This document shows positions 2,824 to 23,381 of a stretch of 29,736 nucleotides of DNA, in pieces. The stretch covers positions 1 through 29,736 of the forward strand of contig JACPGD010000517.1 of the NCBI GenBank assembly GCA_016182645.1, in the 5' to 3' direction. The notes below the pieces were generated by a model. The model made no database searches. It was not told the origin of the DNA and saw nothing but the letters and a program-made list of their open reading frames with translations. Position numbers and translations under genes: made by a program. The DNA comes from Candidatus Hydrogenedentota bacterium (GTDB lineage Bacteria; Hydrogenedentota; Hydrogenedentia; Hydrogenedentales; JACPGD01). Every line of letters starts with the position of its first letter. Position 1 is the stretch's first letter.

Positions 2824-4266
2824 CTACTGCTTCATTCCTAATTGCTCCGGTTTGATGGGTGGGGAATAGCTGGGCATGCTGGCGTTGGGGGCGAGGACGT
2901 AGACGCGCGCATCGCCCAGCAGCGCGATGCAGGTGCGGCCCTTCCCCGCTAGGTCTTCGGTGAAGAGCACCTCCCGGAGCGGGGCATCGAACCGGAACTT
3001 GGCCGTGGGGGTATCGTCGAAGCCCTGCTCGCCATAGAGCCACACGGCGTATTCCTCCGCGGTGCGGCTACAGCCAAAATCGGTCCGCGTGTCCCCGTTG
3101 AAGTCGGCGAATACCAGGTGTTTCAAGGGGGCTTCGGAAGGCATCTCGAGGTACCACGACAAGGGCGCCTGGAGTGAAAGCGTGCTCGCGGCGCGCGGGT
3201 CGAAGCGCTCCTTTTCCGGCACGTACAAGTGCACGCGCAACAGGAGCGGCCAGGCGCCGCTGACCGCCGCGCGCGTCAAGGCGTTCACGGTGATGCTGGC
3301 TTCCGCCGGCGACCAGAGCAAGAGATCCGCATAACTGTCTCCATTGAAATCCGGCTGCCGCAATTGCCGCGTCACCAGCATGCCCGGGTACCGCCGGGCC
3401 GGGCCGGCGCGGAATTCCTGGGCGCCGGCATCACCCGTGGCCTGGGGCGCGCGAATCCGCACGAGCAGATCGCTGAACGCCGCATCGGCCGCGGCGTAGA
3501 GGGCACGTTCCTGGAGCAGGGCTTCTTCGCGCAAGGGAAACCAGGGCCAGGCCTCCGGCGGCATGGCGGCGGCCTCCACCATTTGGCGCGGCGTACCCAT
3601 GCGTCGTGCCACGCCTTCCGCCTCGAGCGGCTGGAGTTCCCCGGGCAACTCCGGCGCATTGGCCACCACGCTGTTGACCCGCATCTCCAACGATCCCGGT
3701 GGTCCGATCTGCGGCGGGTTCGAGGCCCGGCTGCTGAATGGTTCGCCATAGCGCGGCTGCTTCACGGCCGTGGCGGCGAGGGGGAAGTTATCGAGCAAAT
3801 CCCCGGCAGCGCTGCGCAGTTCGAGGGCCGTGTCCGTGGGCAGCGCCAGCGCGGGAACGTCCACGCGCGGCACCACCAGCACATGCAGAAACGGCTGGGT
3901 GGCCGCATTGGCGAACTGCGTGTGCAGGGAAAAAAGATCCGTGCCGTCCGGCGAGGAAGGGGTCGGCAGTCCATAGCGCACCAGGGCATCGCCCGCCACG
4001 CTGACGATCTCGCTGCGCCCGTCCCCGTTCAGATCCGCTATGTCCACCGCCGTCGTACCCGGGCGCAGATTCACCTCATAGGAGGAGTCGGGCCTGGAAT
4101 CCTGAAAGACTGTCAGGCGGAGTCCATCCAAGACGAACAATTCCGCGGGCCCCGCCGGTTCCACCTTCGCGGTGAAAAAGCGGGCTTCCGCACTGGGTAG
4201 GGGAAACTCCAACCGATCAAAGGCGTCCGCGGACAGCAACGCCAGGATGAGTGGCAGCAGCGTCAT
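2824..4266 (-). CDS. secreted FG-GAP/VCBS-like calcium-binding repeat protein (480 aa), fourth gene of the operon
   Basis: Internal ATG at 4266 gives a signal peptide MTLLPLILALLSADA. The longer ORF-track N-terminus is Arg-rich overlap junk. There are three D-x-N-G-D-x-x-x-D-[LIV] motifs (ADLNGDGRSEIVSV, PDFNGDSYADLLLW, ADFNGDTRTDFG). The start overlaps the upstream stop as ATGA (4263-4266). Confidence 0.75.
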   Translation of the reverse strand: MTLLPLILALLSADAFDRLEFPLPSAEARFFTAKVEPAGPAELFVLDGLRLTVFQDSRPDSSYEVNLRPGTTAVDIADLNGDGRSEIVSVAGDALVRYGLPTPSSPDGTDLFSLHTQFANAATQPFLHVLVVPRVDVPALALPTDTALELRSAAGDLLDNFPLAATAVKQPRYGEPFSSRASNPPQIGPPGSLEMRVNSVVANAPELPGELQPLEAEGVARRMGTPRQMVEAAAMPPEAWPWFPLREEALLQERALYAAADAAFSDLLVRIRAPQATGDAGAQEFRAGPARRYPGMLVTRQLRQPDFNGDSYADLLLWSPAEASITVNALTRAAVSGAWPLLLRVHLYVPEKERFDPRAASTLSLQAPLSWYLEMPSEAPLKHLVFADFNGDTRTDFGCSRTAEEYAVWLYGEQGFDDTPTAKFRFDAPLREVLFTEDLAGKGRTCIALLGDARVYVLAPNASMPSYSPPIKPEQLGMKQ

Positions 4267-5741
4267 GACGCCTCCTCCCGCGAGAAGTAGACCAGCGAAC
4301 CGGGCGTCTGTGCCTGCTGGGCCTGTTTGGGCTGGACCAGGAGATCGCCGCGGCCATCGTGGTTGATGTCGTACACCCGGATGTCCGCCGGCCCCGGCAC
4401 GCTCCAGGTCGTTTCGAGGGCGCCGCCCAGACGGCCTGGCGCACTCAGAAACAGCCGCACGCGTTCCGGCTCCTCTCGGACCACGACGTCTTTCCAGCCA
4501 TCGCCATTGAAGTCGCCGGTGAAATTGATCAATTCGCCCAGTTGATAGCGTTGAAACATAGGCCCGTTGAGATAGGGCGCCGCATCCAGATTGATGCGCA
4601 CCTGGCCTTCCACGGCGGGCGCCTTGGAGAACCCCCCGCTCTCTTGAGCATAAACACGCAGGACATGATCGAGCACGGAGCGGGTGAGTAGTTGCGCGAT
4701 CATCTCGCGCGGCCCGCCCTGGAACAGCGTGGCTGATTCCGAGACCAAGTCCTTGTCGCCGTCCCCGTCCACGTCCAGGAAGGAACAATGCGGGCGTAAG
4801 CGCTGGAAGGAAGGTTCGCGCACCACTTTGAACGTGGCGCCGCCATCGAGCGTGGCCCATGTTTCGTAGACCGGGAGCGGATACGCGGAGGCTTTGGATT
4901 CCTGCCACACGCCGCCGGCATAGTCGATCACATCGTCATTGTTCAAACGGCAGGGACGCAGGAAGGCTGGCATGGACGGCGTCGCCTGGGTCGAGCTCGC
5001 CGCGGGGTCCAGTTCCCAGGCCTGGCCGGCCGCCACGCTGTAGTCCGTTCGGACGTAGCCCCGGCTGGAGGCCGTTTCCAGGTCCTGGCTGAGGACGCTG
5101 ATCCGATTCGCTTGAAGGAAGAACCTGGCGGACATCTCCCGGGCCGGAAAGAGGAGACGGCGTCTGGGTGCCGGCCAGAGTTGCTGTTGTTCCTCTTGCA
5201 CCAAATCCAGCGGGGGCAGAATGCGCCAGACGGCACGTTCCGCATAAACTTCGCTCTCCTGGTTACGAGAGAAAACATGAATGCCCGCGGGATCGACGGC
5301 GATCAGTTCGGGGTCGCCGTTGCCATCGACGTCGTGGAGATACCGCTGCAAGCGCCGCTTTTCTTCCGAGAGGTCCGGCGGTTGAGCCGGCCAGGACAGG
5401 GGTTGGCCCACGACCGTTTCCCAGCCTCCCTGCGTCCATCGATAGATAGCCAGACTATTCTGGCTTCTCAGGTAGAGCGCACCCCTCCAGACATCAATGT
5501 CGGCGGGAGCGTCCGGTTGCGGCAGTGGCACGCGCCGTTCCGGGGGGAATCCGCCCGCCTCCTGGAACAGAACCATGCCGGCGAGCACCAGATCGTCGGC
5601 GCCATCTCGGTCGAGGTCGGCCTGGACAAAATTCGTGGCGGCTTCCGCGGTGAGGGGATCGACCACGCCGACGTAAACGGCGGGGATTTCCTGGGACGTG
5701 AAGCGCAGGGCGGCCAGACAAAGCAGGGGCAAGCACATCAT
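4263..5741 (-). CDS. secreted FG-GAP repeat (integrin-alpha-like beta-propeller) protein, 492 aa, third gene of the operon
   Basis: Start MMCLPLLCLAAL... (ATG at 5741) overlaps the permease stop as ATGA. Five spaced Ca-binding-type repeats are present (DLDRDGADDLVLAG, DVDGNGDPELIAVD, DVDGDGDKDLVSE, DFNGDGWKDVVV, DINHDGRGDLLV). Confidence 0.75.
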   Translation of the reverse strand: MMCLPLLCLAALRFTSQEIPAVYVGVVDPLTAEAATNFVQADLDRDGADDLVLAGMVLFQEAGGFPPERRVPLPQPDAPADIDVWRGALYLRSQNSLAIYRWTQGGWETVVGQPLSWPAQPPDLSEEKRRLQRYLHDVDGNGDPELIAVDPAGIHVFSRNQESEVYAERAVWRILPPLDLVQEEQQQLWPAPRRRLLFPAREMSARFFLQANRISVLSQDLETASSRGYVRTDYSVAAGQAWELDPAASSTQATPSMPAFLRPCRLNNDDVIDYAGGVWQESKASAYPLPVYETWATLDGGATFKVVREPSFQRLRPHCSFLDVDGDGDKDLVSESATLFQGGPREMIAQLLTRSVLDHVLRVYAQESGGFSKAPAVEGQVRINLDAAPYLNGPMFQRYQLGELINFTGDFNGDGWKDVVVREEPERVRLFLSAPGRLGGALETTWSVPGPADIRVYDINHDGRGDLLVQPKQAQQAQTPGSLVYFSREEAS

Positions 5742-6529
5742 GCGGAGAGGTTTCGGCGCTGAAGCGCAACAATGGCCAAGGCGGTACAGACGGCCATGAC
5801 GGCAAAGGAGGTGCCGAGGACATACCACACGCCGGGGAACCAATCCAGGGCAATGGCCTCACTGCGGCTGCTGAATACGGCCCAGGGCTTCTCGAGGTAC
5901 GTGGAAAAGACGAAGCGCTCGATGCCCAGGGGATATTTGACCAGGTCAATCAGAATCCATCCTCCGACCGCGCCGGAAGCCGCCGTCATGGGGCTCCTGA
6001 AGAAGGAGGAGAACATGAGCGCCAGCGCGACGCCCGCCCATTGCGGGGCCAGGCTCAACAGCAGTCCCAGGAGGTAGGCATTGCTCATCTCTTCCCGCGT
6101 GAAGAGCAATTCGCCGCCATAGGTAACGCCCATGAGTTCGCCGAGGAGCCACGCCAGCAGCCAACTACTCGCGCCAACTATCAAGGTCAACAGCAGGGCA
6201 TAGGTCATGCCATTGAGTAGTTTGGCCAGGACAAACTCGTGCCTGCGCACGGGCCGGATCAGGACTTGCCGGATCGTGCCGGACGCAAGTTCGGTGGACA
6301 CCAACCCCGCCGAATAAATCAGCAGCAGCAAGAACCCGAGGAAATTCAGGGCCACCGGCGTAATATAAGCGATGAAGCCGTAGTCGCTGACCTCGTCTTT
6401 GCTGATGGGGTAGAGGAGCGGGGCGCAGACGACCGCGATCAGGACAAGGACCGGCCCCATGGCCGAGTATTTGTAGTGGATCACCTTGTACATCTCGAAG
6501 AGATAGGCTTGAACAATGCGCCTGGTCAT
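5738..6529 (-). CDS. ABC-2 family transporter permease (263 aa, ~6 TM helices)
   Basis: Start MTRRIVQAYLFEMYKV at 6529 overlaps the ATPase stop as ATGA. It shows the multi-TM hydrophobic profile typical of ABC-2 (NosY/GldF-like) permeases. Confidence 0.8.
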   Translation of the reverse strand: MTRRIVQAYLFEMYKVIHYKYSAMGPVLVLIAVVCAPLLYPISKDEVSDYGFIAYITPVALNFLGFLLLLIYSAGLVSTELASGTIRQVLIRPVRRHEFVLAKLLNGMTYALLLTLIVGASSWLLAWLLGELMGVTYGGELLFTREEMSNAYLLGLLLSLAPQWAGVALALMFSSFFRSPMTAASGAVGGWILIDLVKYPLGIERFVFSTYLEKPWAVFSSRSEAIALDWFPGVWYVLGTSFAVMAVCTALAIVALQRRNLSA

Positions 6530-7446
6530 GAGGCCGCCCCTTTTTCGCTCTGGTTCATGACTTTCAGAAAATAGTCTTGAAGCGTTCGCCGGCGCGGCAT
6601 GATGGCCGAGACCTTGTATCCCCCCGTGACCAGGAATGCGGCCAGTTGGTGTACGTTTTCCTCGCGAAGGCGCACTTGAAGGCGCCCAGGTTTCGCCTCC
6701 ACCTTTTCCACCCAACTCTGCTCCGACAGGCGCTTGGCCGCGCCCTCACTGCCGTCGATCAGGACTTCGACCGAGGTCTGATCATAAGAGAGCAGCGCGT
6801 CCGTCCGTTCGCAGGCCACCAACTCGCCTTTATTCAGGATGGCCACGCGATCGCAGAGACTTTCTACTTCGTGCATCTGGTGGCTTGAGAAGACAATGGT
6901 CACCCGGGCGTCCTTGGCCAGGTACCGGAGCAATTGCAGGATGTCCTGGACCCCTTCCAAGTCCAGTCCGGCGGTCGGTTCGTCGAGCAAGAGCAACTCA
7001 GGCTCGGTCAACATGGCGTGGGCCAGTCCCAGGCGCTGGCGCATCCCTTGAGATAGTGCCCCCGCGCGGGCATTGCCCGCATGCAGCAGTCCCACCAAGT
7101 CCAGCAAGCGGTCCACATTGACATCATGCCCGGCCAGCCGCGCAAACAGCTTCAAGTTGCGGCGCACGCTCAAATAATCGTAAAAGACGGGCCGCTCCAC
7201 CAGCACGCCCATCCGGCGCGCAATAGACACGAAATTCCGCTGCAATTCCCGCCCGAATACGTTGATCTTTCCCTCGTCCGGCCGGACCAGCCCCGCCAGC
7301 ATGTAGAGCGTGGTGCTCTTTCCCGCGCCATTCGGCCCGAGCAGACCCAACACCTCGCCTTCCTCCACTTTCAGCGTCAAGTTCTTGACCGCAACCGTGG
7401 AACCATAGTGTTTCGTCAGGTTGTTTAGGGAAATACAGGTGGGCAT
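6526..7446 (-). CDS. ABC transporter ATP-binding protein (306 aa) with C-terminal extension
   Basis: Walker A GPNGAGKST, ABC signature LSQGMRQRL and Walker B LLLLDEP are all present. ATG at 7446 (MPTCISLNNLTKHYG). The longer ORF-track N-terminus only translates the heptamer repeats. Confidence 0.9.
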   Translation of the reverse strand: MPTCISLNNLTKHYGSTVAVKNLTLKVEEGEVLGLLGPNGAGKSTTLYMLAGLVRPDEGKINVFGRELQRNFVSIARRMGVLVERPVFYDYLSVRRNLKLFARLAGHDVNVDRLLDLVGLLHAGNARAGALSQGMRQRLGLAHAMLTEPELLLLDEPTAGLDLEGVQDILQLLRYLAKDARVTIVFSSHQMHEVESLCDRVAILNKGELVACERTDALLSYDQTSVEVLIDGSEGAAKRLSEQSWVEKVEAKPGRLQVRLREENVHQLAAFLVTGGYKVSAIMPRRRTLQDYFLKVMNQSEKGAAS

Positions 7447-7471
7447 GCGAAAATGGTAGCACGACGGGAGG

Positions 7472-7534
7472 GGGATTGGGAATTGGGAATTAGGAATTAG
7501 GAATGGGGAATGGGGAATGGGGAATGGGGAATGG
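7472..7534. repeat. heptanucleotide repeat array, 9 units (minus-strand sense: CCATTCC x5, TAATTCC x2, CAATTCC, CAATCCC)
   Basis: Direct reading of the sequence. It lies 26-90 nt upstream of the ABC ATPase start codon. The unit is related to the CAATCCG/CAATTCC array at 904-945. Confidence 0.9.
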
Positions 7535-7545
7535 GGGAGGAGGGA

Positions 7546-7616
7546 GGAGACCTGCGGTCGGGGCCGTGGCGCGGTCAGGAGACCACGCCATAGCGGGGGA
7601 GGAGGAGACCTGACGG
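7546..7616 (-). repeat. two direct copies of the motif CCG(T)CAGGTCTCCTCC.C..CCCCC plus a third GGAGACC core; degenerate copy of the 2418-2610 element
   Basis: The reverse complement of 7599-7616 equals 2418-2435 exactly (18/18). Downstream similarity continues (CCCCCGCTATGGCG vs CCCCCTCTGCCATGGGCG). A second copy is at 7546-7566. Confidence 0.7.
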
Positions 7617-7670
7617 AGAGCACGTATTTCCGTGTTTTTGTGCTTCGTCTCCCTTGAGCGCCAATAATGC

Positions 7671-7699
7671 TTGCTGATTGTGTTTCCGTGCGCTACAAT
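7671..7699 (+). promoter_or_regulatory. putative sigma-70-type promoter for the giant surface-protein gene (-35 TTGCTG, 17-nt spacer, -10 TACAAT)
   Basis: Hexamers read directly from the sequence in an AT-richer divergent intergenic region, about 110 nt upstream of the ATG at 7812. No experimental support. Confidence 0.3.
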
Positions 7700-7811
7700 G
7701 CGGAAGGTATGTACAGCATGCCAGCACGATGTCTGTAGTAGGTTTTCTGTATCGAATTTCTGAAACACGTGGCGGCCTGCAGGACGCTACGTATAGCGCA
7801 GGGGACGACCA

Positions 7812-10800
7812 ATGCAGCGCTTAGGGGTTTTCGCTTGGGCGGCGGGTGTAACGGGCGCCGTCATTGCCACCGTGGTGGTGGCCGCCGCGGTGTTCCAGCA
7901 AGAGGCGCTGCCGGCGCCGGATCGGCTGGACGGGGCTGGGGCACCATCGGAGACAGCGGTCCCAACGCCCGGGACGAAACCACTGCCGGCTGCGCTCCAG
8001 CGTAAGCTGAAGAAAGGCCCAAAACCCCACGATCAGCCGGCCGAAGCGCAGGAATTCTATGTGCAGCAACGTATGGGCGGCGCGGGGCCGCTGGACTATG
8101 CCTTGCTCGAGGCGGCCGCCGCGGAGGCGGAGAAACTGCCGTCGGCCAATGTATTCGCCGAGAAGGCCGCCGGGGACATTAGCGGTTGGGAGGAACTGGG
8201 TCCCGGCAACATTGGGGGACGTACGCGAAGCCTGCTGCTTGACCCCTTGAATCCGGACATTATGTACGCCGGCGGTGTGGCGGGCGGCGTCTGGAAATCC
8301 ACGGATGGCGGCGGCAACTGGGACCCGCTCAATGATTTGATGGACAACCTCGCCGTGACGACGCTGGCGTTTGAGCAGCAAGGGTCGCCCACCACCAATA
8401 CCGACGTGATATACGCGGGTACGGGCGAGGGCTATTTCAACGGCGATGCGGTGCAAGGCGCGGGGATCTTCAAGAGCAGCAACTCTGGCGCTACCTGGAC
8501 GAGGCTGGCCAGCACCAATAATGCAGACTTCTTTTTTGTGAACAAACTGGTGGCCAGCCCCAATAATCCGCAGGTACTGTACGCGGCGACGGCCACGGGC
8601 ATCTGGCGTACCAACAATGGGGGCCAAACCTGGACACCGGTCCTCCGCAATAATGGGGCGGGCGGAACGAGCGGCTCCGCGGTAAGGACTTTCGTTGGCT
8701 TCACCGACATCGAGATTCGTACCGACCTGACCACGGACACGTTGTTCGCAAGCAATGGAAGTTTCATCGCTCCGCCCAACTTCCCGGCGGACGGCATCTA
8801 TCGCTCTTTGGATGGCGGGGACTCCTGGTCTCGTGTTTTCACCCGGGCGGACATGGGCCGATCCGATCTGGCCATAGCACCGAGCAATCAAAATGTCATT
8901 TATGCCTTGACGGCGGACGCTCAAAATGGTGAGCGGTTGCTGAACGTGTTTCGGAGCATGGATGGCGGCACGACGTGGGCGCCGCGGATTTCAGGCACCT
9001 TTAACCGGCATAACGCGGACTGGCTGTTGCTCACGAATCCGCTCATTGCCAATCTGGGCCCGTGCTTCGGCGATTTCGACGGGGAATTCAACCAGGGCTG
9101 GTATGACAACATTATCGCCGTTGCGCCCCACAATCCCGACATCGTGTTTGCGGGCGGTATCGACCTGTTTCGGTCCGACAATGGCGGCGCCAACTGGGGC
9201 ATCATCAGCTACTGGTATGAGCCGATTGCCGGGACCGCCTTCGCGCACGCGGACCATCACGCACTCGTATTTCATCCGGCGTGGAATGGCGCCTCGAATC
9301 AGGTCCTTTTTAATGGCAGTGACGGTGGTGTCTATCGAACGAATAATGCGCTGGCCGCCGTGGCGTCCGGCGCCAATGATGGGGTGTGCAGCGATTCGAC
9401 AGAGGTGGTGTGGAACAGCTTGAACAACAGTTATGGCGTGACGCAGTTCTACCACGGACGGCCTTACCCAGCGCCCACGGAACGGTACTTTGGGGGTACG
9501 CAGGACAACGGCACGCTGCGCGGCGCGGACAATACGGGATTGAATGGCTGGAACGAAATCAACGGCGGTGACGGCGGCTATGTCAGCTTCCACCCGGGCA
9601 ACCCGAACATCCTCTTCGCCGAGAACACCGGCGCCAGTATGCAGCGTTCGGTGAATGGCGGCTCAACTTTTGATGATATTGTGTCGGGGGCGGGGCAAAT
9701 CAATTTTGATATCGACCCTGGCTTCATGTTCATCACTCCATTCCGCCATGACCCGAGCAATCCCGACCGGATCTGGTATGGCGGCTGGTTTGCCTGGCGC
9801 TCGAACAATGCCGCGAGCGCCTCCTCGGCAACCGCCGTGCGCTGGACCCAGGCCAGTGCAGTGACCCCCGGCGATGGGAGCATCTCGGCCTGGGGCATCG
9901 ATCCCAACAACAGTAACAAGGTCTACGTGGGTCTTTCAGACGGTGTTGTTGCGCGGACCACCAATGCCACAACATCCACCAGCGCCACCAACTGGGCGGA
10001 CATTACGCCACCCTTCACCGGGTTCGCCTACATCAGTTGGATCGAGGTGGATGGCAACGACACGACCGGCGGAACGGTGTATGTGACCAACTCGGTGTTC
10101 GGCTCCCAGCACGTTCTTAAGTCAAGCAACGGGGGCAATGCCTGGACGGACATCACCGGGAACCTGCCGGACATTCCCGTCCACTGCCTTGTCGTGCAAC
10201 CGGGGGCGGCAAGCAATTTGTTCATCGGGACCGACCTTGGCGTTTTTGTGTCGAAGATTGGCGGGGGGAATTGGACCCGCATGAACTCAAATGGTTTTGC
10301 GAACGTCGTGGTCGAGTCGCTCGAATTTCAGGACGCCGAAACCCTCTATGCCTTTACGCATGGGCGCGGGGCTTTCCGGGCGGCGGTACAGCCACCGGCC
10401 GGCGGCGAGGGTGAAGGGGAAGGCGAAGGCGAAGGCGAGGGAGAAGGCGAAGGTGAGGGGGAAGGGGAAGGCGAAGGGGAAACGGTGATCGTCGATGTGC
10501 TGACTGATGTGGCCGATGGCGACACGTCGTCGGTCCAGGCACTGGGTCTGAATCGCGGTCCCGATGGTAAGATCTCGCTGCGCGAAGCCCTCCTGGCCAC
10601 GAACAACACCGGTGGCCCGAATGTCATCACCTTCTCTGTCAATGGCGCTATCCGGCCGTCGACGCCCTTGCCGTTCCTCAGCGACCAGAGCGGCGGCACC
10701 CAAATTCAGGGGGGCAATACGATTACGCTTAATGGGATCTTGGCGCCCGCGGCCACGGACGGTCTCGTGCTGAGTTCGGGCGCTAACGCCGTCATTGGCT

Positions 10801-12434
10801 TGAGCATTATCGATTTCACGGGCAATGGCATCAGTATCCTGGGCGATCAGAACATTGTCCAGGGGTGTTTCATTGGCATCCGCCTGGATGGCTCGACCCT
10901 GCAAGGCAACGATCTGAATGGGATAGCCCTCTCGGGCGGCAGTGGCAACCTGATCGGCGGCAGTTCCACTCAGCAGCGCAACGTGATATCTGGCAATGGG
11001 CTAGGGATCCTGATCAATGTTGGCGCACAAGGCAATATCATTCAGTCGAACTTTGTGGGCACGACGGCCAGCGGGACGGCCTCGGCGGGCAACCTCTCGC
11101 ACGGTATACTGCTGGAGGAGGCGGGAACGTCCGACAATATAATCGGCGGAGTGGGCGTCGGGAACGTGGTGTCGGCCAATGGCGGTGAAGGCATTATCGT
11201 GAACGATGCCGGCACGGGCAACCAAATCCAGGGCAATTTCTGCGGAACCAACGTTACGGGCGCCGCGGGCCTGGGCAACACGGAGTCCGGCATACTCGTG
11301 GACAATACGACCGGATGCCTGATTGGTGGGGCCGTGGCGGGACAGGGCAACCTGGTGGGGGGCAATGGCTCCGACGGCATCGCCCTGGGAGGCGACGCTT
11401 GTGAGGGCAATGTAATCTCAGGCAACCGCGTGGGCGTCAATCTGGCAGGGACCGTGGCGATCCCGAATGCCAATGAGGGGATTGTGTTGTTCGGGGGGGC
11501 GCACAACAATACCATCGGCGGTTCCACCGCGGGCGCGGGCAACCTGGTTTCGGGAAATATCTTCAATGGCATCCTGCTGGCCAGCCGGACCACCGCCAAC
11601 CTGGTGCAGGGGAACATCGTGGGCTTGGGCGCGGACGGCACAACGCCTCTTGGCAATTTTGAAGACGGTATTGGCCTGGCCAATGGGGCGAGCAATAACC
11701 TGATCGGCGGCGAAGGCACGGGCGCGGCCAACGTGTCCAGCGCGAACAGGGGCGCCGGCGTGCACGTGAATGGATCGAACACATTGAACAACACCATCAG
11801 CCGCAACAGCATCTATAACAATGCCGGCCTGGGAATCCGGCTGAGCGAGGGCGGCAACGGCAACATGGGCGCGCCGGTCATTTCCGGGCTGGGCTCGGTG
11901 GATGGGACCGCGCCTCCCGATAGCACCGTCGAGATTTTCGTGGACGGCAGCGACGAGGGACGCATCTACCTGGACACGGTCACCGCCCAGAACGATGGTA
12001 CGTTCTCGAGCGACGAGCCGGTGGGCGCCTATGTCGGCATGTTCGTGACCGCCACGGCGCGCAATGCGGCAGGCAGCACCTCGATATTCAGCGTGCCGCT
12101 GTTGATTTCGGGAGTGGGCGAGGGTGAAGGCGAGGGCGAGGGCCGCGGCGACCACAGTGCCGACCTGAACAAGAATGGCCGCATTGAATTGTCCGAGTTG
12201 CTGCGCCTGGTGCAATTCTACAATTCAGGGATCTTTCATTGTCAGGGCGGTACGGAGGACGGCTACAATCCGGGTCCCGGCCCACAGAATTGCACCACGC
12301 ATGACAGCGATTACGCCGATCAAGACTGGCGCATCAACCTCTTCGAATTGCTCCGGCTTGTCCAGTTCTACAACAGCAACGCCTACTTCGAATGCACCGG
12401 TACGGAGGATGGCTACTGCCCCGGGCTGGGGTGA
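7812..12434 (+). CDS. giant modular cell-surface protein (1540 aa): N-terminal anchor, BNR/Asp-box (sortilin/GH74-like) beta-propeller, (GE)n linker, CSLREA motif + right-handed parallel beta-helix, second GE linker, duplicated dockerin-like Cys-containing C-terminal module
   Basis: - N-terminal hydrophobic anchor.
- At least 8 S/T-x-D/N-G-G-x-x-W BNR motifs (KSTDGGGNW, KSSNSGATW, RTNNGGQTW, RSLDGGDSW, RSMDGGTTW, RSDNGGANW, KSSNGGNAW).
- GEGEGE x12 at aa ~865-890.
- ISLREALLATNN then repeated N.I.GN....GI.L beta-helix rungs.
- Two C-terminal repeats (DLNKNGRIELSELLRLVQFYNS...C..GTEDGY.PG). Confidence 0.85.
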   Translation: MQRLGVFAWAAGVTGAVIATVVVAAAVFQQEALPAPDRLDGAGAPSETAVPTPGTKPLPAALQRKLKKGPKPHDQPAEAQEFYVQQRMGGAGPLDYALLEAAAAEAEKLPSANVFAEKAAGDISGWEELGPGNIGGRTRSLLLDPLNPDIMYAGGVAGGVWKSTDGGGNWDPLNDLMDNLAVTTLAFEQQGSPTTNTDVIYAGTGEGYFNGDAVQGAGIFKSSNSGATWTRLASTNNADFFFVNKLVASPNNPQVLYAATATGIWRTNNGGQTWTPVLRNNGAGGTSGSAVRTFVGFTDIEIRTDLTTDTLFASNGSFIAPPNFPADGIYRSLDGGDSWSRVFTRADMGRSDLAIAPSNQNVIYALTADAQNGERLLNVFRSMDGGTTWAPRISGTFNRHNADWLLLTNPLIANLGPCFGDFDGEFNQGWYDNIIAVAPHNPDIVFAGGIDLFRSDNGGANWGIISYWYEPIAGTAFAHADHHALVFHPAWNGASNQVLFNGSDGGVYRTNNALAAVASGANDGVCSDSTEVVWNSLNNSYGVTQFYHGRPYPAPTERYFGGTQDNGTLRGADNTGLNGWNEINGGDGGYVSFHPGNPNILFAENTGASMQRSVNGGSTFDDIVSGAGQINFDIDPGFMFITPFRHDPSNPDRIWYGGWFAWRSNNAASASSATAVRWTQASAVTPGDGSISAWGIDPNNSNKVYVGLSDGVVARTTNATTSTSATNWADITPPFTGFAYISWIEVDGNDTTGGTVYVTNSVFGSQHVLKSSNGGNAWTDITGNLPDIPVHCLVVQPGAASNLFIGTDLGVFVSKIGGGNWTRMNSNGFANVVVESLEFQDAETLYAFTHGRGAFRAAVQPPAGGEGEGEGEGEGEGEGEGEGEGEGEGETVIVDVLTDVADGDTSSVQALGLNRGPDGKISLREALLATNNTGGPNVITFSVNGAIRPSTPLPFLSDQSGGTQIQGGNTITLNGILAPAATDGLVLSSGANAVIGLSIIDFTGNGISILGDQNIVQGCFIGIRLDGSTLQGNDLNGIALSGGSGNLIGGSSTQQRNVISGNGLGILINVGAQGNIIQSNFVGTTASGTASAGNLSHGILLEEAGTSDNIIGGVGVGNVVSANGGEGIIVNDAGTGNQIQGNFCGTNVTGAAGLGNTESGILVDNTTGCLIGGAVAGQGNLVGGNGSDGIALGGDACEGNVISGNRVGVNLAGTVAIPNANEGIVLFGGAHNNTIGGSTAGAGNLVSGNIFNGILLASRTTANLVQGNIVGLGADGTTPLGNFEDGIGLANGASNNLIGGEGTGAANVSSANRGAGVHVNGSNTLNNTISRNSIYNNAGLGIRLSEGGNGNMGAPVISGLGSVDGTAPPDSTVEIFVDGSDEGRIYLDTVTAQNDGTFSSDEPVGAYVGMFVTATARNAAGSTSIFSVPLLISGVGEGEGEGEGRGDHSADLNKNGRIELSELLRLVQFYNSGIFHCQGGTEDGYNPGPGPQNCTTHDSDYADQDWRINLFELLRLVQFYNSNAYFECTGTEDGYCPGLG
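10404..10484 (+). repeat. in-frame imperfect hexanucleotide repeat (GGN GAR)x~13 encoding the Gly-Glu linker; shorter second tract at 12113-12142
   Basis: Direct reading of the sequence. The unit length of 6 keeps the frame if copy number changes. Confidence 0.85.
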
Positions 12435-12439
12435 ACAGC

Positions 12440-12458
12440 GCCCGCGGATGGCGCGGGC
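12440..12458. terminator. GC-rich hairpin (7-bp stem GCCCGCG/CGCGGGC, 5-nt loop) between convergent genes
   Basis: It lies 6 nt after the TGA at 12432-12434 and 40 nt before the convergent aminotransferase stop. There is no T-tract, so at best a bidirectional or non-canonical terminator. Confidence 0.3.
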
Positions 12459-12499
12459 ACGGACAGACACGGAGCAGTTGATTTGGCTGGGGTGGCCGG

Positions 12500-13843
12500 C
12501 TAGGCCGCCACGTACCGGTCGATGGCTTGGCGCAGCGTCGAGAAGATCCACGCGCGTTTCTTGTCGTCGCTCTCCAAAAGCGTGAAGCGGAAGCCCGCAT
12601 GCTCGCTCTGGAAGCCGGTCAAGGGCACGACCACCACGCCGGTGGCCCCCATCAGATAGTAGACGAAGCGCTTGTCGGGGGACACGTTCTTCACCAATTG
12701 CTCGATGCGTTCGCGCACGATCGCGTTCTCGATGGGCAGTGTCTGGTGTTGGTTGAGCACGCCGTCCTTGAACATGACGGTGAAGTAGAACGCGCCGCCC
12801 GGTTTGTTGGCGATGACCGCGCCGCAGCCGTCGAACGCCGTCATGGCTTCTTCCGCCCGCTGTTCAAAGATGCCCGCGCGCCGTTTGAGGTGGGCGGGGT
12901 AGCGACCATCCCCAAACACGCGGGGGATGGACATCTGCGGCAGGGTCGTCGAACAGACTTCGAGCCGCTTGGCTGCCAGGAGGCTTTCGACATAGGTGGC
13001 GAAATTGGCGTCGCGGCCTTTGTTCAGGATCTCGAGCCAGCCGCAACGTGAGCCGGGCCAGGGGTATTCCTTGCTGATGCCGCGCATGGCGAGGGCGGGA
13101 ACGTCTTGAATCCACTGGCTCATGTGGAGCCGGGGATATCCTTCATAGACGATGTGCGAGTAGATTTCGTCCGCGATCATGAACAAATTGTATTCCTGGG
13201 CGATCTTCACAATTTGGTCCAGGATTTCACGCGGATAGACAGCGCCGGTCGGGTTATCTGGGGAAAGCAGGAGGATGCCCGCAATCGAGTCGTTGTAGCG
13301 CACCTTATTGCGGATGTCTTCCACGTTGGGCATCCACCCGTTATAGGGATCGAGCTGATAGGTGACGTGGCTGTAACCGGAATGGGCGGCTTCAGCGGAA
13401 CTGTGGGTGCTGTAGGCCGGCGACGGCCCGAGGACCCGCGCCTCGCGCTTCAGGAACCCGTAGACCTTCGCGACAGCATCGCCAATCCCGTTGAAGAACA
13501 GGATGTCATCCGGGGTGATCTGTACGCCGCCGTCGCGGACGTTGACGTGCTCCGCCAGGAATTCCCGGGTGGCGATGACCCCGGCCGTGTCGCAGTACCC
13601 GTAGGAGGCCGGCTGGTTGAGCAGCTCATGCAGGATGTCACAGATCCAGGGGGCGAGCGTTTCGCCTTTTTCGATCGGGTCGCCGATGTTTTCCCAGGTG
13701 ATCTTCTGGCCGAGGGCGCGAATCGAGCGGGCCACGCCCACGATCTCTCGGATCTCGTAGTGCAGGTTTCCGGCGCCCTCGTGAACAATACTTCTTCTCA
13801 TTGCGACCCCAAGTCCGTTGGTTTGGTTATTACCCCTGCTCAT
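12500..13843 (-). CDS. class I/II PLP-dependent aminotransferase (alanine/aspartate aminotransferase-like), 447 aa
   Basis: Family pattern throughout (NIGDPIEKG, LLLSPDNPTG, YSHIVYEG) and the PLP-lysine context GISKEYPWPGSRCGW. Start taken at the internal ATG 13843; an alternative ATG lies ~42 nt downstream. Confidence 0.85.
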   Translation of the reverse strand: MSRGNNQTNGLGVAMRRSIVHEGAGNLHYEIREIVGVARSIRALGQKITWENIGDPIEKGETLAPWICDILHELLNQPASYGYCDTAGVIATREFLAEHVNVRDGGVQITPDDILFFNGIGDAVAKVYGFLKREARVLGPSPAYSTHSSAEAAHSGYSHVTYQLDPYNGWMPNVEDIRNKVRYNDSIAGILLLSPDNPTGAVYPREILDQIVKIAQEYNLFMIADEIYSHIVYEGYPRLHMSQWIQDVPALAMRGISKEYPWPGSRCGWLEILNKGRDANFATYVESLLAAKRLEVCSTTLPQMSIPRVFGDGRYPAHLKRRAGIFEQRAEEAMTAFDGCGAVIANKPGGAFYFTVMFKDGVLNQHQTLPIENAIVRERIEQLVKNVSPDKRFVYYLMGATGVVVVPLTGFQSEHAGFRFTLLESDDKKRAWIFSTLRQAIDRYVAA

Positions 13844-13995
13844 GCATACCGGAACACAAAAGATAGTTGCCGGAAGGCGCGGGAAAGCGGGTGAAGCCAC
13901 GGATCATAGGGGCTGAGGCGGCGGGAATTCAATTGTCCTGAGGGGAGGATGTGCGGAAGGGGAGTCGAAAAGCGCCGGAACGCCCGAGGGGGGAG

Positions 13996-14949
13996 TCAGA
14001 TACGCCGATCCGTGTAGACGCCCCCGCCGCGGCGGCGCGAGCTTTCCCGGAGCCGGGAGAGGGTGTCGAGCAGTTCGCGGAACGAAATGGACTGTGCAGG
14101 CTCGTGGCTTGTGACAAAGAAGCTGATATCGAGGACAGGGACGCTGAAGGGGCGGGGCGTGGTCCGGCTGCTTTGGGCGGCGGCGAGGGCGCTGCCCTTT
14201 CCGATAGAGTTATAGAATTCCGGCAGGTGCTCGCGCCAGAGCTTCGCTACTTTTTCGCAGTACTCATCAGCGGAACCCTTGGGCAGGATGACCAGAAAAT
14301 GCCCACCGCCCAGGTGACCCACTTTAAATGGTTCTGAATGAAACTGTTCCCCCAAGGCCTGCAGCGCGCGGGCCACGTGACGAATGGCCTTGGCGCGCTC
14401 TTCTTCTCCCACGATTCGGCCAAACTCAGTGGCGTGCAGGAGTTCCACATAGACCAGTTGGAAGGTCTGGCGGGTGTTAAGTGCCCGCTGGACTTCGAGT
14501 TTAACCCCTTTGGCGCTCAGCAGGCCCGTCATGGTGTCCAGATTGGAGGCGTGCGAATTTGTGGAAAGGAGGTTTTCGACGCGCTTCAGGAGCATCTCGA
14601 AGCGAAATGGTTTTGAGACATAGTCGTCCGCCCCCTGGGCCAGGCCATGGGAAATCTCTTCCTCATCGCTCATGGCCGAAAGCATGAGAATGGGCAGGCT
14701 GTAGAGCTGCTCATTGGCGCGGATGCGGCGGCACAACTCAAACCCGGAGATGCCGGGGAGCATGACGTCGAGAATGAGCAGATCAACGGGATTGGCCTCG
14801 ATTTCCGTCAGGACATACTCCGCCCGTGTCTGCGCCCTGCAGGTATGGCCAGAGGCGCGGAATTCCTGTACCATCCGGCTTGTGAGCCGTTCGTCGTCAT
14901 CCACTACGAGAATTGTCGCCACTGCGCCCGTTCGTCCCGCTTGTCTCAT
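13996..14949 (-). CDS. response regulator: REC receiver domain + degenerate GGDEF domain (GGGHF in place of GG[DE]EF)
   Basis: N-terminus ILVVDDDERL...LLILDVMLPGISGFEL has the phospho-acceptor Asp context. The C-terminal domain is diguanylate-cyclase-like, with signature HLGGGHFLVILP lacking the catalytic acidic residues. Confidence 0.85.
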   Translation of the reverse strand: MRQAGRTGAVATILVVDDDERLTSRMVQEFRASGHTCRAQTRAEYVLTEIEANPVDLLILDVMLPGISGFELCRRIRANEQLYSLPILMLSAMSDEEEISHGLAQGADDYVSKPFRFEMLLKRVENLLSTNSHASNLDTMTGLLSAKGVKLEVQRALNTRQTFQLVYVELLHATEFGRIVGEEERAKAIRHVARALQALGEQFHSEPFKVGHLGGGHFLVILPKGSADEYCEKVAKLWREHLPEFYNSIGKGSALAAAQSSRTTPRPFSVPVLDISFFVTSHEPAQSISFRELLDTLSRLRESSRRRGGGVYTDRRI

Positions 14950-15129
14950 CCCGTCCTTTATACAAGCTAAGCTGTTTTGTCACCTGGATATATAAACAGT
15001 ACCACGCCGCCCGCGCCACGTCAAACCTGACCTACTGCGTCCGACCTGCCTGCCCCGTCTGACTCCTCAGAATCGTCCGATCGGTTCGATCCGACCGCTC
15101 AGTCCGATATCCTCTCCCCCCTTCAGCGC

Positions 15130-19570: not shown

Positions 19571-21925
19571 TCAACTTGCTTCCGTGGCCGGGTGCTCGAA
19601 ATAAAATGCCATGCGCGTTAACTGAACATTGGTCGTGTCCCGGATCTGGAGGAACCGTTGCACCCGTGGGTCATAGAGGAGGCTCAGGCCGGCGCCACTG
19701 CCCGTACCGGGCACGAACATCCCCAGGTCCGCCGCGACGACCCCGCCGCGAATCGACATCCTGCCCAAGGTGTTCGAATTGTGCCGCGTAAAGCTGCGGC
19801 AAATGTTAAAGATCGAGTTGTTGCTGTACAGGAGTCCGTCGAATTTCCAGTCCCTTCCGCTGGAGGGCCGGGTCATTTCATCGTCGTACCAGATTTGGCG
19901 CAACGCGGACTCAGACATCCAGTTGCCCTCGGGGCTGGTATAGTGATACACGGCCCGGTCAAGAATGTCTGAACGTCCGATAGATGCCAGGTAGGTCGAG
20001 AGTGTCTTGACGCCGCTCTCGCTATAGCGGACCGAGTGTTCGTCCGCGGAATCATAGACGTAGATGTTGTTCGGCTGACTCTCGCGCAGGCCGTAGAAGC
20101 GCGGCACATAGCTGCTGTCCGCGATGGCCTTCTCGAGTTCCATGTTGTTGAACAGCATCAACTCGGAGGTGGTAAAGCTGAATTGCTGCCCAGGACGCCC
20201 GCTCACGGTCTGGCCCGCGTCCACGGAATAAGGGTCAAAATAGCCCCATTTCAAGGTTTCCGTCTTACTGCCGACGGTGACGTTATTCGTGCGGTTCTTG
20301 TCCCGCGCGTGGATACTGTACTGTGACCAGGTAGGATATTTTGCGTTGTTTTGCGAACTGTGGTTGACCCCCCGGACCGTCAGATAGTCGCCCATCATGA
20401 CGCTGCCGCCGGCTTCCAGCGCGAAGGCGTTCTCTTTGTAGGTGCCCGTGGCGGCATCAAAATCGTATTTTCCAAACATCCCAGGATCGTCGGCATAGGT
20501 GACATCGCCCACGATGTAGACATTGCCGCGGACCAGCAACCGGCCATCGCCTTTGATCGGTCCCTTGATAACCAAGTCACCATCCACGGCAACAGTATTG
20601 TCAATCTGGATCGGATCAGAACTATTGCCGACGAGAATCAAGTTGCCCTCGTAGCGGCCCGTGGTGCTCAAGGCATTGAGCGCGTCGGCCGTCGACACGT
20701 TGGGCAAAGTGGTTTCGGCGTAGCTCGTGCCCGAAGGGACCCCATAGGCGATGCCCCCGGTCACGGAGCCGGCGGGCGGCGGGGTTGTACTGGCGTTTTC
20801 AAACGTTACGACGCCATCCGCGGTATTAAACACGCGATCAAACTCATCATCGTCCACCATGCGGTTGCCATTGTCATCCCCGTAGGGCGCTGGAAATGAA
20901 TCCGGCAGGTCTCCATCGGTCTGGAGGTTCGAGTCCAGGGGATAGTCGCGGTACAGATTTGCAAAGGGTTCGAGTTTGCCGCTGCTATCCAAGCCCGCGT
21001 TTTGCAGGGCAACCTCTGACATGCCGCCGGTCGCATTCTGCGTAATCTTGCCGTTCTCGTCGCTGAAATCGTAGCCGCGCAAGGAGGAAGAGGCGAGTTC
21101 CGCATCGCTGTAGAGGGCGCCGTTGTCTTTGTATACCTGGCCCCGGGTATATAAGGTGCCAGCAACCTTGGAATCCACCTCGGCCGTGGTGCGGATCATC
21201 AGCGATTCGAGCGCGGCCACCTTGACACGGTCAAAGGTGTTGTACAGGGAGGGGTCCGTGTTCAATTGCTGATCCACGGACAGCACGCGCAGGTGACACA
21301 TAATGCAGTTGATGTTATTGGCCAGAATAGGATATTGCGGCCCAGTGAAGGGTTCACCCCCGATATCCAGGATTTGGACGGCCGTCTTGGTCTGGCCTTC
21401 ACAACTTGCCATGGCCCGAATGGTCAAGCGGCTGGCGAACACAGTGTCGAACCGGGCCACGTGGACAGCGTCGATGGTTGCCACAACACGCTCGCTGTCG
21501 GGATCGCGGAACTCGACGGGCTCGCTCAGCATGGCCCAACCCCGCTGGTCGTACCCCGAGGCGTAGGTCTGCAGGATGCCATCTCCATTTCCGTCTTCAC
21601 CGGCATCCTTGGCGCCATTGAAATTCAGGTCCTCATTCACCGGGACGGCGAGGTCCGAGTCCAGGAATTGTTTATAGGAGGCCACGTTGCCTGTGGTATT
21701 GCCATTGCCGGCAAGGTAGTCGTTCCACAGGCGCACCACCCCCAAGTCGATCCCTGCTTGCGCAGCTTCTTCCAGGACAATGGTGTTGTAGGCGTGGTCG
21801 GTTTCCTTTTTCGCCGCATGTACCCGCAGCATCACCACACCCATCGAGCCGAGGATGACTATGATTGCCATCATCGCAAAAATGAGAGCCATGCCCTGCT
21901 GATTACGCAAACGTGATCGACTCAT
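19571..21925 (-). CDS. large GspK-like minor pseudopilin / prepilin-type protein lacking Glu+5 (784 aa)
   Basis: ATG at 21925 is preceded by AAGGAGG 6 nt upstream. N-terminus MSRSRLRNQQG|MALIFAMMAIIVILGSMGV is a prepilin-like hydrophobic helix with Phe, not Glu, at +5 (the GspK hallmark). The ~750-aa beta-rich remainder has Asp/Gly/Asn-rich loops (NGNGDGILQ, GDDNGNRMVDDDEFD). It is the last gene after two pseudopilin genes. Confidence 0.7.
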   Translation of the reverse strand: MSRSRLRNQQGMALIFAMMAIIVILGSMGVVMLRVHAAKKETDHAYNTIVLEEAAQAGIDLGVVRLWNDYLAGNGNTTGNVASYKQFLDSDLAVPVNEDLNFNGAKDAGEDGNGDGILQTYASGYDQRGWAMLSEPVEFRDPDSERVVATIDAVHVARFDTVFASRLTIRAMASCEGQTKTAVQILDIGGEPFTGPQYPILANNINCIMCHLRVLSVDQQLNTDPSLYNTFDRVKVAALESLMIRTTAEVDSKVAGTLYTRGQVYKDNGALYSDAELASSSLRGYDFSDENGKITQNATGGMSEVALQNAGLDSSGKLEPFANLYRDYPLDSNLQTDGDLPDSFPAPYGDDNGNRMVDDDEFDRVFNTADGVVTFENASTTPPPAGSVTGGIAYGVPSGTSYAETTLPNVSTADALNALSTTGRYEGNLILVGNSSDPIQIDNTVAVDGDLVIKGPIKGDGRLLVRGNVYIVGDVTYADDPGMFGKYDFDAATGTYKENAFALEAGGSVMMGDYLTVRGVNHSSQNNAKYPTWSQYSIHARDKNRTNNVTVGSKTETLKWGYFDPYSVDAGQTVSGRPGQQFSFTTSELMLFNNMELEKAIADSSYVPRFYGLRESQPNNIYVYDSADEHSVRYSESGVKTLSTYLASIGRSDILDRAVYHYTSPEGNWMSESALRQIWYDDEMTRPSSGRDWKFDGLLYSNNSIFNICRSFTRHNSNTLGRMSIRGGVVAADLGMFVPGTGSGAGLSLLYDPRVQRFLQIRDTTNVQLTRMAFYFEHPATEAS

Positions 21926-21974
21926 AAGCGCCTCCTTGCGGAGCAGTCGCGCGTGACCCGCGGCTGTCATCCGG

Positions 21975-22643
21975 CTAATTCTGCAAATGAAGGGTGGTCT
22001 CCGATTCTGCCCGCACCACGTGCTCGTTATTCGGCCCATATCCCTTCGACGATTCCACGCGCACATAGAACGTCGTGAAATAATTGTTGTCGCTGGCGTT
22101 CGGCCGCAATTGGAAAGTCAGGGCGCTGATATCGTTGACGCCGCCGGTCACCTTGGTTTCCCCCGACTGCTCCCGCACGATCCGGCGTGTCAATATGCCG
22201 TCGCCATTGGCGTCTTCGCCCTCGTCCAGTTTGCCGTTTATCGGTGCATCATTCAGCCCGTCCTCATTCTCGTAGCGGTACACGATCGGGTCCGAGACGG
22301 TAATCATTGTGGCGTCGTTCGTGGGGACCGGGAGGACGAAGCTCACGGACAGACCGTCCCCTGAGACCGTTACGGGTATAGCGCCCGGCGGGACAAAGTT
22401 CGGATCCATTTGCGCCAGCGTCTTGTCGGTGTATGCGGAGCGGATCTCGCTGGCGATGGCCATCATGACGTCACGCACGTTGGCCTGCACTTCGCCCTTC
22501 GCCTGGGTCAGCGAGGTGGCTTCGGTCGAGCCTTGCAGCACCACGAAACTGAGGGCGCCGACAATCGCGAGGATGGCGATCGCAAACGTGATTTCGAGCA
22601 GGCTATACCCTTGTGTCGCCATGGCAGTGGTCCCCTTATTCAT
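21975..22643 (-). CDS. type II secretion/type IV pilus minor pseudopilin (GspJ-like position), 222 aa
   Basis: N-terminus MNKGTTAMATQG|YSLLEITFAIAILAIVGALSFV has the canonical prepilin cleavage/methylation site with Glu+5. An alternative start ATG at 22622 has AAGGGGA 7 nt upstream. M1 overlaps the upstream stop by 8 nt. Confidence 0.8.
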   Translation of the reverse strand: MNKGTTAMATQGYSLLEITFAIAILAIVGALSFVVLQGSTEATSLTQAKGEVQANVRDVMMAIASEIRSAYTDKTLAQMDPNFVPPGAIPVTVSGDGLSVSFVLPVPTNDATMITVSDPIVYRYENEDGLNDAPINGKLDEGEDANGDGILTRRIVREQSGETKVTGGVNDISALTFQLRPNASDNNYFTTFYVRVESSKGYGPNNEHVVRAESETTLHLQN

Positions 22644-23154: not shown

Positions 23155-23381
23155 CCAGACATCCTTTCCGGCCTTTCGGCCACCCTGCCCTGCCTGAATA
23201 CGGAACCAGACCATTCTGCCATGAAGTCAAGAATAAAGCAAGTGGCACGAGTAGGCCCGATCTATAACAAATGCTTATAAAACAATGACTTACAAGACAT
23301 TTTCTGCGAGACTCCGGGAGATCGGGTCACACGATAATCAGGCCCGCCGGCCGAACTCCGGCTTTCCCGTGAGCTGGGACG

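Follow-up and report, generated by a model that had tools for sequence, protein, structure and literature searches.

We analyzed a 29,736-nt stretch of DNA from Candidatus Hydrogenedentota bacterium (contig JACPGD010000517.1 of assembly GCA_016182645.1; hereafter the window) and a gene in it that encodes a protein of 1540 aa. Judging from sequence comparisons, the last ~95 residues of this protein belong to a large, uncurated, phylum-specific family of dockerin-like Ca-loop modules with which thousands of otherwise unrelated secreted proteins end. Taken as a whole, the protein is a modular surface protein of an ordinary kind; what stands out is the module family and its connection with cohesin proteins.

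A Modular Protein with a Duplicated C-Terminal Module

The domain order proposed in an earlier, sequence-only reading of this DNA is borne out, and all the features that it listed are present: a hydrophobic N-terminal segment is followed by a double beta-propeller, a run of 13 Gly-Glu units, (GE)13, a beta-helix with an ISLREA motif, an Ig-like domain, a second spacer, (GE)4-RGD, and two ~46-aa repeats. That reading called the protein chimeric, a label that we replace with modular: the propeller belongs to a family with interchangeable C-terminal extensions, and the cassette of beta-helix, Ig-like domain, GE spacer, and module recurs alone. The gene and its terminal module have the following coordinates in the window.

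7812-12434 (+): uninterrupted open reading frame (ORF) with an ATG start and 1540 codons, real and in a single frame
12153..12293 (+): module repeat 1 (aa 1448-1494), with an EF-type loop (D1451-E1462), a helix, and a Cys-bracketed TEDG hairpin
12294..12431 (+): module repeat 2 (aa 1495-1540), with a 13-residue loop (D-Y-A-D-Q-D-W-R-I-N-L-F-E), a helix, and a Cys-bracketed TEDG hairpin

Two tandem C-terminal units of ~45 aa, each with a Ca loop, a helix, and conserved Cys, had been described, and both are found at ~46 aa each. They are identical at 27 positions and contain four Cys in total, the last of which (C1537) is three residues from the end of the protein.

A Large Module Family in Hydrogenedentota

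An initial search with the last 101 residues of the protein returned 30 proteins, short or partial and for the most part labelled Hydrogenedentes. Each of them has the module at its C-terminus behind a GE-rich linker, and the modules of unrelated passengers are 41-65% identical to the query module. The profile built from the alignment of this search (alignment A1) was scored against 1.84 billion cluster representatives and matched 3112 of them at E<=1e-3 and 1535 at E<=1e-30, with lengths from ~100 to 2552 aa. The tail can therefore no longer be regarded as unique, as it had been, although it does lie outside the known families, as had been supposed: no Pfam or NCBIfam model covers it. The window protein matches the hidden Markov model of the module family with an E value of 3.4e-57 over the whole sequence and 5.5e-54 for the module domain, and it contains the family signature H-x-A-D-x-N-x-D-x-x-I-x-L-S-E-L-L-R-x-I-Q-F-[FY]-N...C...T-E-D-G-[YF] twice, with four Cys, in a C-terminal position, and behind a (GE)4 linker.

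Among 238 sampled members, the module lies within five residues of the C-terminus in 220 (92%), and 24 have more than one match to the module profile, some of them full internal or tandem copies and others partial or overlapping matches. The 46 residues upstream of the modules are 20% Gly and 18% Glu, and exactly four Cys are found in 136 of 168 modules. The passengers to which the module is attached include InlB-B repeats, beta-helices, leucine-rich repeats, several Ig-like families, proprotein-convertase P domains, an M4 peptidase, PASTA, FG-GAP, and NHL domains.

All named sources of the module are Candidatus Hydrogenedentes or Hydrogenedens, with one exception from Kiritimatiellae. At least six module proteins come from a single metagenome-assembled genome (MAG; PLI09_ locus tags), and two are encoded on a 20-kb segment of a complete Hydrogenedentes chromosome. 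This chromosomal locus (L001) gave the only module match in a scan of genome contigs, which otherwise returned a distant propeller (L002). Many family members are annotated as partial at contig ends, as a repeated sequence that breaks assemblies would lead one to expect. In the literature that we searched on Hydrogenedentes together with dockerin, EF-hand, cohesin, and sorting themes, the module is not described.

Sequence Conservation and Predicted Fold of the Module

Loop 1 of the window protein (D1451-L-N-K-N-G-R-I-E-L-S-E1462) fits the 12-residue EF-hand loop, and in the family this loop reads D-x-N/D-x-D/N-[G/N]-x-I-x-L-S-E, with the first Asp and the last Glu conserved in 100% of members, N/D in 95%, D/N in 98%, and I/V in 98%. 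Loop 2 of the family (D-Y-N-P-Q-D-W-x-I-x-L-S-E) is one residue longer and falls outside the EF-hand pattern. Both module helices have the sequence E-L-L-R-x-I-Q-F-[FY]-N, conserved at 89-100%, the two T-E-D-G-[YF] hairpins are ~99% conserved, and the four Cys, which probably form two disulfides, are conserved at 91-98%.

A prediction of the structure of the C-terminal part, proposed beforehand as a check, supports the description of the module as dockerin-like. The AlphaFold2 model of the module (101-aa query, 28-sequence alignment) has a predicted local distance difference test (pLDDT) score of 92.6 and a predicted template-modeling (pTM) score of 0.81 and consists of two units of loop, 13-residue helix, and beta-hairpin, with the helices at positions 21-33 and 71-83. 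Tandem segments of Ca loop plus helix are thus combined in one small domain, as in dockerins. No helix stands ahead of either loop in the model, which departs from the helix-loop-helix of EF-hands; because no helix precedes them, we describe the loops as F-hands, as found in dockerins. The six best Foldseek matches of the module are all dockerins, but with E values of about 1 and target-normalized TM scores of 0.44-0.53. In sequence comparisons with the PDB, the module profile matched only the EF loops of calmodulin and troponin (best E value 5e-4), and sub-threshold EF-hand matches, weak and located on loop 1, were found in 24 of 28 module members; the window protein scored 18.4 bits against EF-hand_5, for which the cutoff is 25.9. 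We therefore keep dockerin-like as the most suitable term at hand for the structure of the module, and not as a claim of homology with dockerins.

Cohesin Proteins That Carry the Module

Four proteins of 253-294 aa (P0317, P0207, P0274, and P0277) are composed of a signal peptide, one Cohesin domain, a GE linker, and the module. Their Cohesin domains score 31-45 bits against the Pfam model (cutoff 24.1), and P0317 matches the PDB cohesin 5nrk_A with an E value of 7e-5. A similar 258-aa protein with cohesin and module is encoded on the complete chromosome (locus L001, 17616-18389, minus strand). As far as sequence can tell, cohesin-type receptors exist in the phylum and themselves carry the module. 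The fusion of a Cohesin domain to a module fits two models: either the module is the anchor and the cohesin serves another ligand, or the cohesin binds the modules of other proteins. In the anchoring scaffoldins of cellulosomes, the anchor position is held by SLH domains. The small cohesin and module proteins are candidates for a receptor or adaptor in the module system. Taken further, the module and the cohesin and module proteins could form a new surface-display system of the cohesin-dockerin type, native to a diderm phylum, the Hydrogenedentota, in which a divergent, disulfide-braced "long dockerin" would tether thousands of different enzymes, adhesins, and proteases to one another or to the surface of the cell; we put this forward as a speculative and rather unlikely proposal.

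The Propeller and the Beta-Helix Cassette

Upstream of the module, the protein contains the following features.

7812..7898 (+): N-terminal hydrophobic segment (aa 1-29, MQRLGVFAWAAGVTGAVIATVVVAAAVFQ), a Sec signal peptide or signal-anchor
7989..8162 (+): helical pre-domain (aa ~60-117), conserved in alignment A2, with the family motif K-x-x-D-x-P-x-E-A-x-x-F-Y; modeled by AlphaFold as three helices
8163..10403 (+): BNR/Asp-box double beta-propeller (aa 118-864) with a GH74-like fold, the conserved core of a very large family that spans phyla
10404..10481 (+): (GE)13 acidic spacer (aa 865-890), 78 nt with varied codons
10482..11867 (+): right-handed parallel beta-helix (aa ~891-1352), identified by Pfam Beta_helix and rung repeats
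10572-10607 (+): N-terminal cap motif of the beta-helix (ISLREALLATNN, aa 921-932), by motif match
11868..12113 (+): Ig-like beta domain (aa ~1353-1434), with a weak match to Pfam Big_6 (E value 0.014)
12114..12152 (+): second spacer, V(GE)4-GRGD (aa 1435-1447), with (GE)4 at aa 1436-1443 and RGD at aa 1445-1447

The N-terminus, which had been read as a membrane anchor, has a hydrophobic run of 24 residues (residues 5-28) right after MQR, so that the hydrophobic stretch itself stands; the homologues have comparable N-terminal signal sequences, several of which are instead ordinary signal peptides.

A full-length search returned more than 6000 matches at E<=1e-5. The best 120 of these are 43-62% identical over about half of the query and never cover more than 59% of it, and the part conserved across the propeller homologues corresponds to aa ~60-864. 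The end of the propeller family is marked by a terminal motif, T-H-G-R-G-A-[FWY]-R, beyond which the extensions differ strongly among homologues and comprise Ig-like, BACON, PKD, cadherin-like, Calx-beta, and NHL domains as well as PT-rich linkers; the closest Hydrogenedentes homologue (P0031) has a GE run as its extension. At least eight Asp-boxes of the form S-x-D-G-G-x-x-W had been reported. Between aa 163 and 778 we count six with the strict pattern S-x-[DN]-G-G-x-x-[WF], and the number eight is reached with the looser pattern [ST]-x-[DN]-x-G-x-x-[WF]. The AlphaFold model of the propeller (pLDDT 89.8) has 54 strands, consistent with ~14 four-stranded blades and with two tandem seven-bladed propellers that form a cleft, as in glycoside hydrolase family 74 (GH74), and the propeller-family profile matches GH74 chains with E values from 3e-17 to 1e-9. 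Of the catalytic Asp pair of GH74, at least one is not retained. The first Asp, that of the ARADIGG motif of Xgh74A from C. thermocellum (2cn2), which is Ala in the deposited mutant 2cn3, aligns with a Val in the motif AGVAGGVW of the family, and the second Asp did not align. Because the profile of the propeller family matches GH74 chains and the family has Val at the catalytic Asp, its fold is that of GH74 without at least one catalytic residue. Across phyla, ~90 positions are invariant among the 42 aligned members (alignment A2), with the motifs GPGNIGGR, GTGEG-FN, QGWYDN, HADQH, GGTQDNGT, and GGDGGY; this conservation without the GH74 Asp suggests a distinct active or binding site. The propeller may be a glycan hydrolase with other catalytic residues, or a glycan binder only. 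With thousands of members at 45-64% identity in Acidobacteriota, Proteobacteria, Rokubacteria, and Hydrogenedentes, the family is a sizeable and uncharacterized one of GH74 fold and different invariant residues that merits biochemical study. Three tandem paralogues of 1356, 284, and 1083 aa are encoded on one Hydrogenedentes-related contig (L006, 629-9005), and the propeller family thus expands locally in some genomes.

The first spacer had been described as a perfect GE run of 12 units; the actual count is 13. In the beta-helix that follows, internal rung repeats are present, and the rungs that had been noted are confirmed by Pfam Beta_helix (PF13229), which scores 31.7 bits in three stretches when aa 889-1438 are scanned alone and 23 bits on the whole protein (cutoff 25.9). 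A motif of the CSLREA type had been placed ahead of this region. The residues concerned are present as ISLREA (aa 921-926), but TIGR04214, the NCBIfam model for CSLREA, gave no match at E<=10 with the whole protein or with sub-segments of 75-123 aa, a search in which the filters of HMMER may drop short weak matches. A PDB sequence search with the beta-helix segment found nothing.

A phmmer search with aa 891-1435 against the proteins that we had retrieved gave strong matches in the module-bearing P0235, P0254, P0192, P0255, and P0269. Several of the matching proteins have a signal peptide directly followed by the cap motif x-[ST]-[LF]-R-x-x-I-x-x-x-N, and P0235 has three beta-helix units and keeps the Ig-like domain together with the beta-helix. 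We infer from the sequence that the domain after the beta-helix is Ig-like. On the same kind of evidence, the order signal peptide, capped beta-helix, Ig-like domain, GE spacer, and module appears as a recurrent stand-alone architecture in the phylum, and the window protein resembles a member of the propeller family to which this beta-helix cassette has been joined via (GE)13. The second GE spacer does end in RGD, as had been noted; a reading of this RGD as an integrin-type motif was dropped because it is not conserved in the module family (alignment A1).

Proposed Function and Alternatives

We propose, with a probability of about 0.5, that the protein is a Sec-exported, surface-displayed modular protein with a shared docking module. 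It would be exported by Sec to the extracellular space or the cell surface, with the double seven-bladed BNR propeller as its N-terminal working end, and its propeller and beta-helix would have a polymeric substrate, which they act on or bind. The flexible, acidic GE runs would serve as extended spacers that keep the passenger away from the anchor. The module itself is predicted to be a Ca2+-stabilized, disulfide-braced, dockerin-like protein-protein docking domain that would tether many different secreted proteins to a common cell-surface receptor, for which the small proteins of the phylum with signal peptide, cohesin, GE linker, and module are candidates. What we observed is the domain composition, the family size, the placement of the module at the protein end, the variety of its passengers, and the predicted fold; that the module binds Ca2+, forms disulfides, anchors the protein, and has the receptor suggested here is what we would expect from them.

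Several observations weigh against this proposal. No binding partner was identified for the module. Pfam Dockerin_1 (PF00404) has no match in the window protein at E<=10, and its matches in the family are weak and limited to 4 of 28 members (best E value 0.0016). A hydrolase role of the propeller is unproven because the Asp aligned with the GH74 catalytic residue is absent. Among database proteins, none has the full architecture, the assembly index has no entry for the window protein, and the coverage by homologues stays at <=59%; no independent assembly crosses the (GE)13 junction, because the nearly identical contig described below begins inside the beta-helix. Finally, a domain that sits strictly at the C-terminus of Sec substrates and is highly conserved is just as typical of a secretion or sorting signal.

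This last point leads to the alternative that survives best, one that we consider less probable but a serious possibility: the module could be a secretion or sorting signal read by an outer-membrane machinery, like the C-terminal domain of the type IX secretion system (T9SS) or the PEP-CTERM/exosortase system, and perhaps be removed or covalently processed. Its position at the extreme C-terminus in 92% of members, its high conservation on unrelated passengers, its many copies per genome, and its confinement to essentially one phylum all fit such a signal, as do the N-terminal signal peptides, given which a second targeting step across the outer membrane would be needed. However, the module is folded, with Cys and a Ca loop, and has neither the hydrophobic helix or basic tail of the PEP-CTERM and LPXTG classes nor the beta-sandwich of T9SS C-terminal domains. 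Its nearest folds are dockerins, no candidate processing enzyme adjoins the gene in the window, and the internal full copies among the 24 of 238 members with more than one profile match are a better fit to an interaction domain.

It is also conceivable, although we find it doubtful, that the module depends on Ca2+ and works as a lectin-like or envelope-binding domain that attaches non-covalently to the cell's own polysaccharide, lipopolysaccharide, or S-layer or to a substrate glycan. The nearly invariant acidic TEDG hairpins and Ca loops are compatible with this, and so are the cohesin and module proteins if the module is their anchor, in an SLH-like position, and the cohesin a receptor for something else. 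Against it, PDB, Pfam, and fold comparisons revealed no likeness of the module to any known carbohydrate-binding module or SLH domain, and its structural neighbors are protein-binding dockerins.

A third alternative concerns the gene rather than the module: a propeller gene ending in GE and a gene for GE, beta-helix, and module might have been joined in frame by assembly through the (GE)n repeat. The limited coverage by any database protein is in keeping with such a chimera, as are the many family members that are partial at contig ends, where repeats break assemblies, and the signal peptide with which proteins of beta-helix and module usually begin. Independent sequence is available for the downstream part. 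A 3770-bp contig (L009) of Candidatus Hydrogenedentes MAG GCA_016192355.1 agrees with window 11279-15048 at 99.8% identity and carries the same downstream aminotransferase and response-regulator genes, and its partial protein (P0221) is identical to aa 1163-1540 at 377 of 378 positions; the contig begins at nt 11279, beyond the junction, which leaves room for a chimera. The GE-coding run, however, is just 78 nt long, matches a 6-nt repeat at 80% (Tandem Repeats Finder), and has varied codons, so that short reads can span it; moreover, P0031 runs through its GE segment into further sequence before its contig ends, and the composition shows no break across the junction. Because the repeat is short and imperfect, the composition is unbroken, and P0031 continues past GE, we rate an assembly chimera as unlikely.

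Neighboring Genes and the NosDFY Hypothesis

The sequence-only reading also connected the gene with a string of ABC and FG-GAP genes that lies divergently upstream of it. This arrangement is present in the window as follows, the four genes being neighbors with no demonstrable link to it.

7447..7811: divergent intergenic region, with (GGGGAAT)x9.6 at 7470-7536 and a GC-rich repeat at 7542-7594
6526-7446 (-): ABC ATPase
5738-6715 (-): ABC-2 permease, with generic ABC-2 Pfam matches only
4263-5843 and 2824-about 4260 (-): two FG-GAP proteins (Pfam)

The first 59 codons of the ATPase ORF (7447-7623, minus strand) are repeat DNA read as a Pro-rich low-complexity peptide, and its true start is probably the ATG at 7446 (MPTCISLNNLTKHYG) rather than position 7623, as judged from the sequence; with this start, the intergenic region is ~365 bp long. 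The FG-GAP ORFs at 4263-5843 and 2824-4908 have 646 nt in common, which they read in different frames; either the true start of the downstream gene is much later or there is a frameshift.

In that reading, a NosD-like beta-helix would work with a NosF/NosY-like ABC pair as a rearranged nosDFY maturation system. The divergent adjacency of the beta-helix gene and the ABC pair favors this idea, as does the match of the permease to ABC2_membrane_2, a family that we take to include NosY, and a match to NosD can be found, at 16.5 bits on a 142-aa sub-segment only. The cutoff for NosD is 23.6 bits, and such cross-matches are common to generic beta-helices. The best models for the ATPase are DrrA, lantibiotic-protection, and GldA, all below their cutoffs, with NosF not in the top 25; nosZ, nosL, and nosR are absent from the 29.7-kb window; and the beta-helix cassette stands alone as a secreted protein in many module proteins. 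Co-conservation of the gene with the ABC operon, which had been set beforehand as a test, was not found at the loci compared: none of those of four of the closest propeller homologues (P0032, P0033, P0038, and P0036, on contigs of 16-160 kb) has ABC or FG-GAP neighbors, the genes around them being unrelated. The contig of P0031 is too short for this comparison, and the single 1.6-kb locus returned by a search of metagenomes with the permease carried no information on the point. We therefore reject the nosDFY hypothesis as highly improbable, because the NosD match is sub-cutoff, the ATPase is generic, no nosZ, nosL, or nosR is present in the window, and the four homologous loci have no ABC neighbors.

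Other Features of the Window

Perfect or near-perfect tandem arrays of heptamers occur in intergenic DNA, the (GGGGAAT)x9.6 array listed above being accompanied by (CAATCCG)x5.6 and (TGGAGTC)x4 at 904-942 and 2751-2778; a contingency-type or regulatory role of these arrays is conceivable. A dispersed GC-rich element of ~50-70 nt is found at 7542-7594 (+) and 23845-23909 (-) of the window and at positions 4-76 of another contig of the same MAG (L008), where it lies upstream of the P0031 gene. Its 20-nt core (CGTGGCGCGGTCAGGAGACC) is identical at the two window sites, for which the chance expectation is none. The second copy and an 18-nt tandem repeat (23833-23874) are located inside a galactokinase ORF (23382-24650), between its two Pfam domains. 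We considered the element shared by the upstream regions of the two propeller genes as evidence of synteny and discarded it because this dispersed repeat recurs at 23.9 kb. Elsewhere, an 831-aa ORF and the next two ORFs (222 and 192 aa) at 19571-23214 on the minus strand had no Pfam match at E<=1e-3.

Significance and Comparison with Known Systems

The Hydrogenedentota, an uncultured phylum often met in anaerobic digesters and sediments, are predicted polymer degraders. Should the tail serve for docking or sorting, it would be the mark of practically the entire secreted or surface proteome of this phylum, and the module profile would be an immediate computational handle on the Hydrogenedentota exoproteome. 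The tail would also add a family to those in Pfam and NCBIfam, which lack it, and would extend cohesin-dockerin-like assembly logic beyond cellulolytic Firmicutes.

The known domains to which the module is most alike are the type I dockerins (PF00404). Like these, it is C-terminal on diverse secreted passengers behind a linker and is a tandem duplication in which each unit runs from a Ca loop into a helix and lacks an entering helix; dockerins are its best structural neighbors in the PDB by two methods, with the low Foldseek scores given above; and Cohesin domains, which may bind it, occur in the same phylum fused to the module. Unlike the dockerin unit of ~22 aa, the unit of the module is ~46 aa, twice as long, with an extra Cys-bracketed TEDG beta-hairpin. 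Position 12 of the loop, which is usually Asp in dockerins, is an invariant Glu in the module, as in classical EF-hands, and loop 2 is one residue longer. The module is also undetected by Dockerin_1, and its host is an uncultured candidate phylum rather than a cellulolytic Firmicute. With calmodulin-type EF-hand pairs it shares a loop 1 that fits D-x-N/D-x-D/N-G-x-I-x-x-x-E and the pairing of two loops in a small domain, but it is extracellular, Cys-containing, and strictly C-terminal, has no entering helix, and scores below the gathering cutoffs of all Pfam EF-hand models.

The passenger domains have counterparts of their own. The propeller resembles the GH74 xyloglucanases and oligoxyloglucan cellobiohydrolases (such as 2cn2, 2ebs, and 6p2m) in its tandem seven-bladed Asp-box propellers of ~740 aa and differs from them in the invariant motifs of its family and in the Val that takes the place of the ARADIGG Asp. 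The beta-helix is right-handed, as in NosD and the CSLREA-capped or "choice-of-anchor" proteins, with the cap motif x-S-L-R-E-A-x-x-x-x-N at its N-terminal end and Gly- and Asn-rich rungs of the N-x-[IV]-x-G-N type; in contrast to the CSLREA proteins, its motif has Ile for Cys and TIGR04214 is silent.

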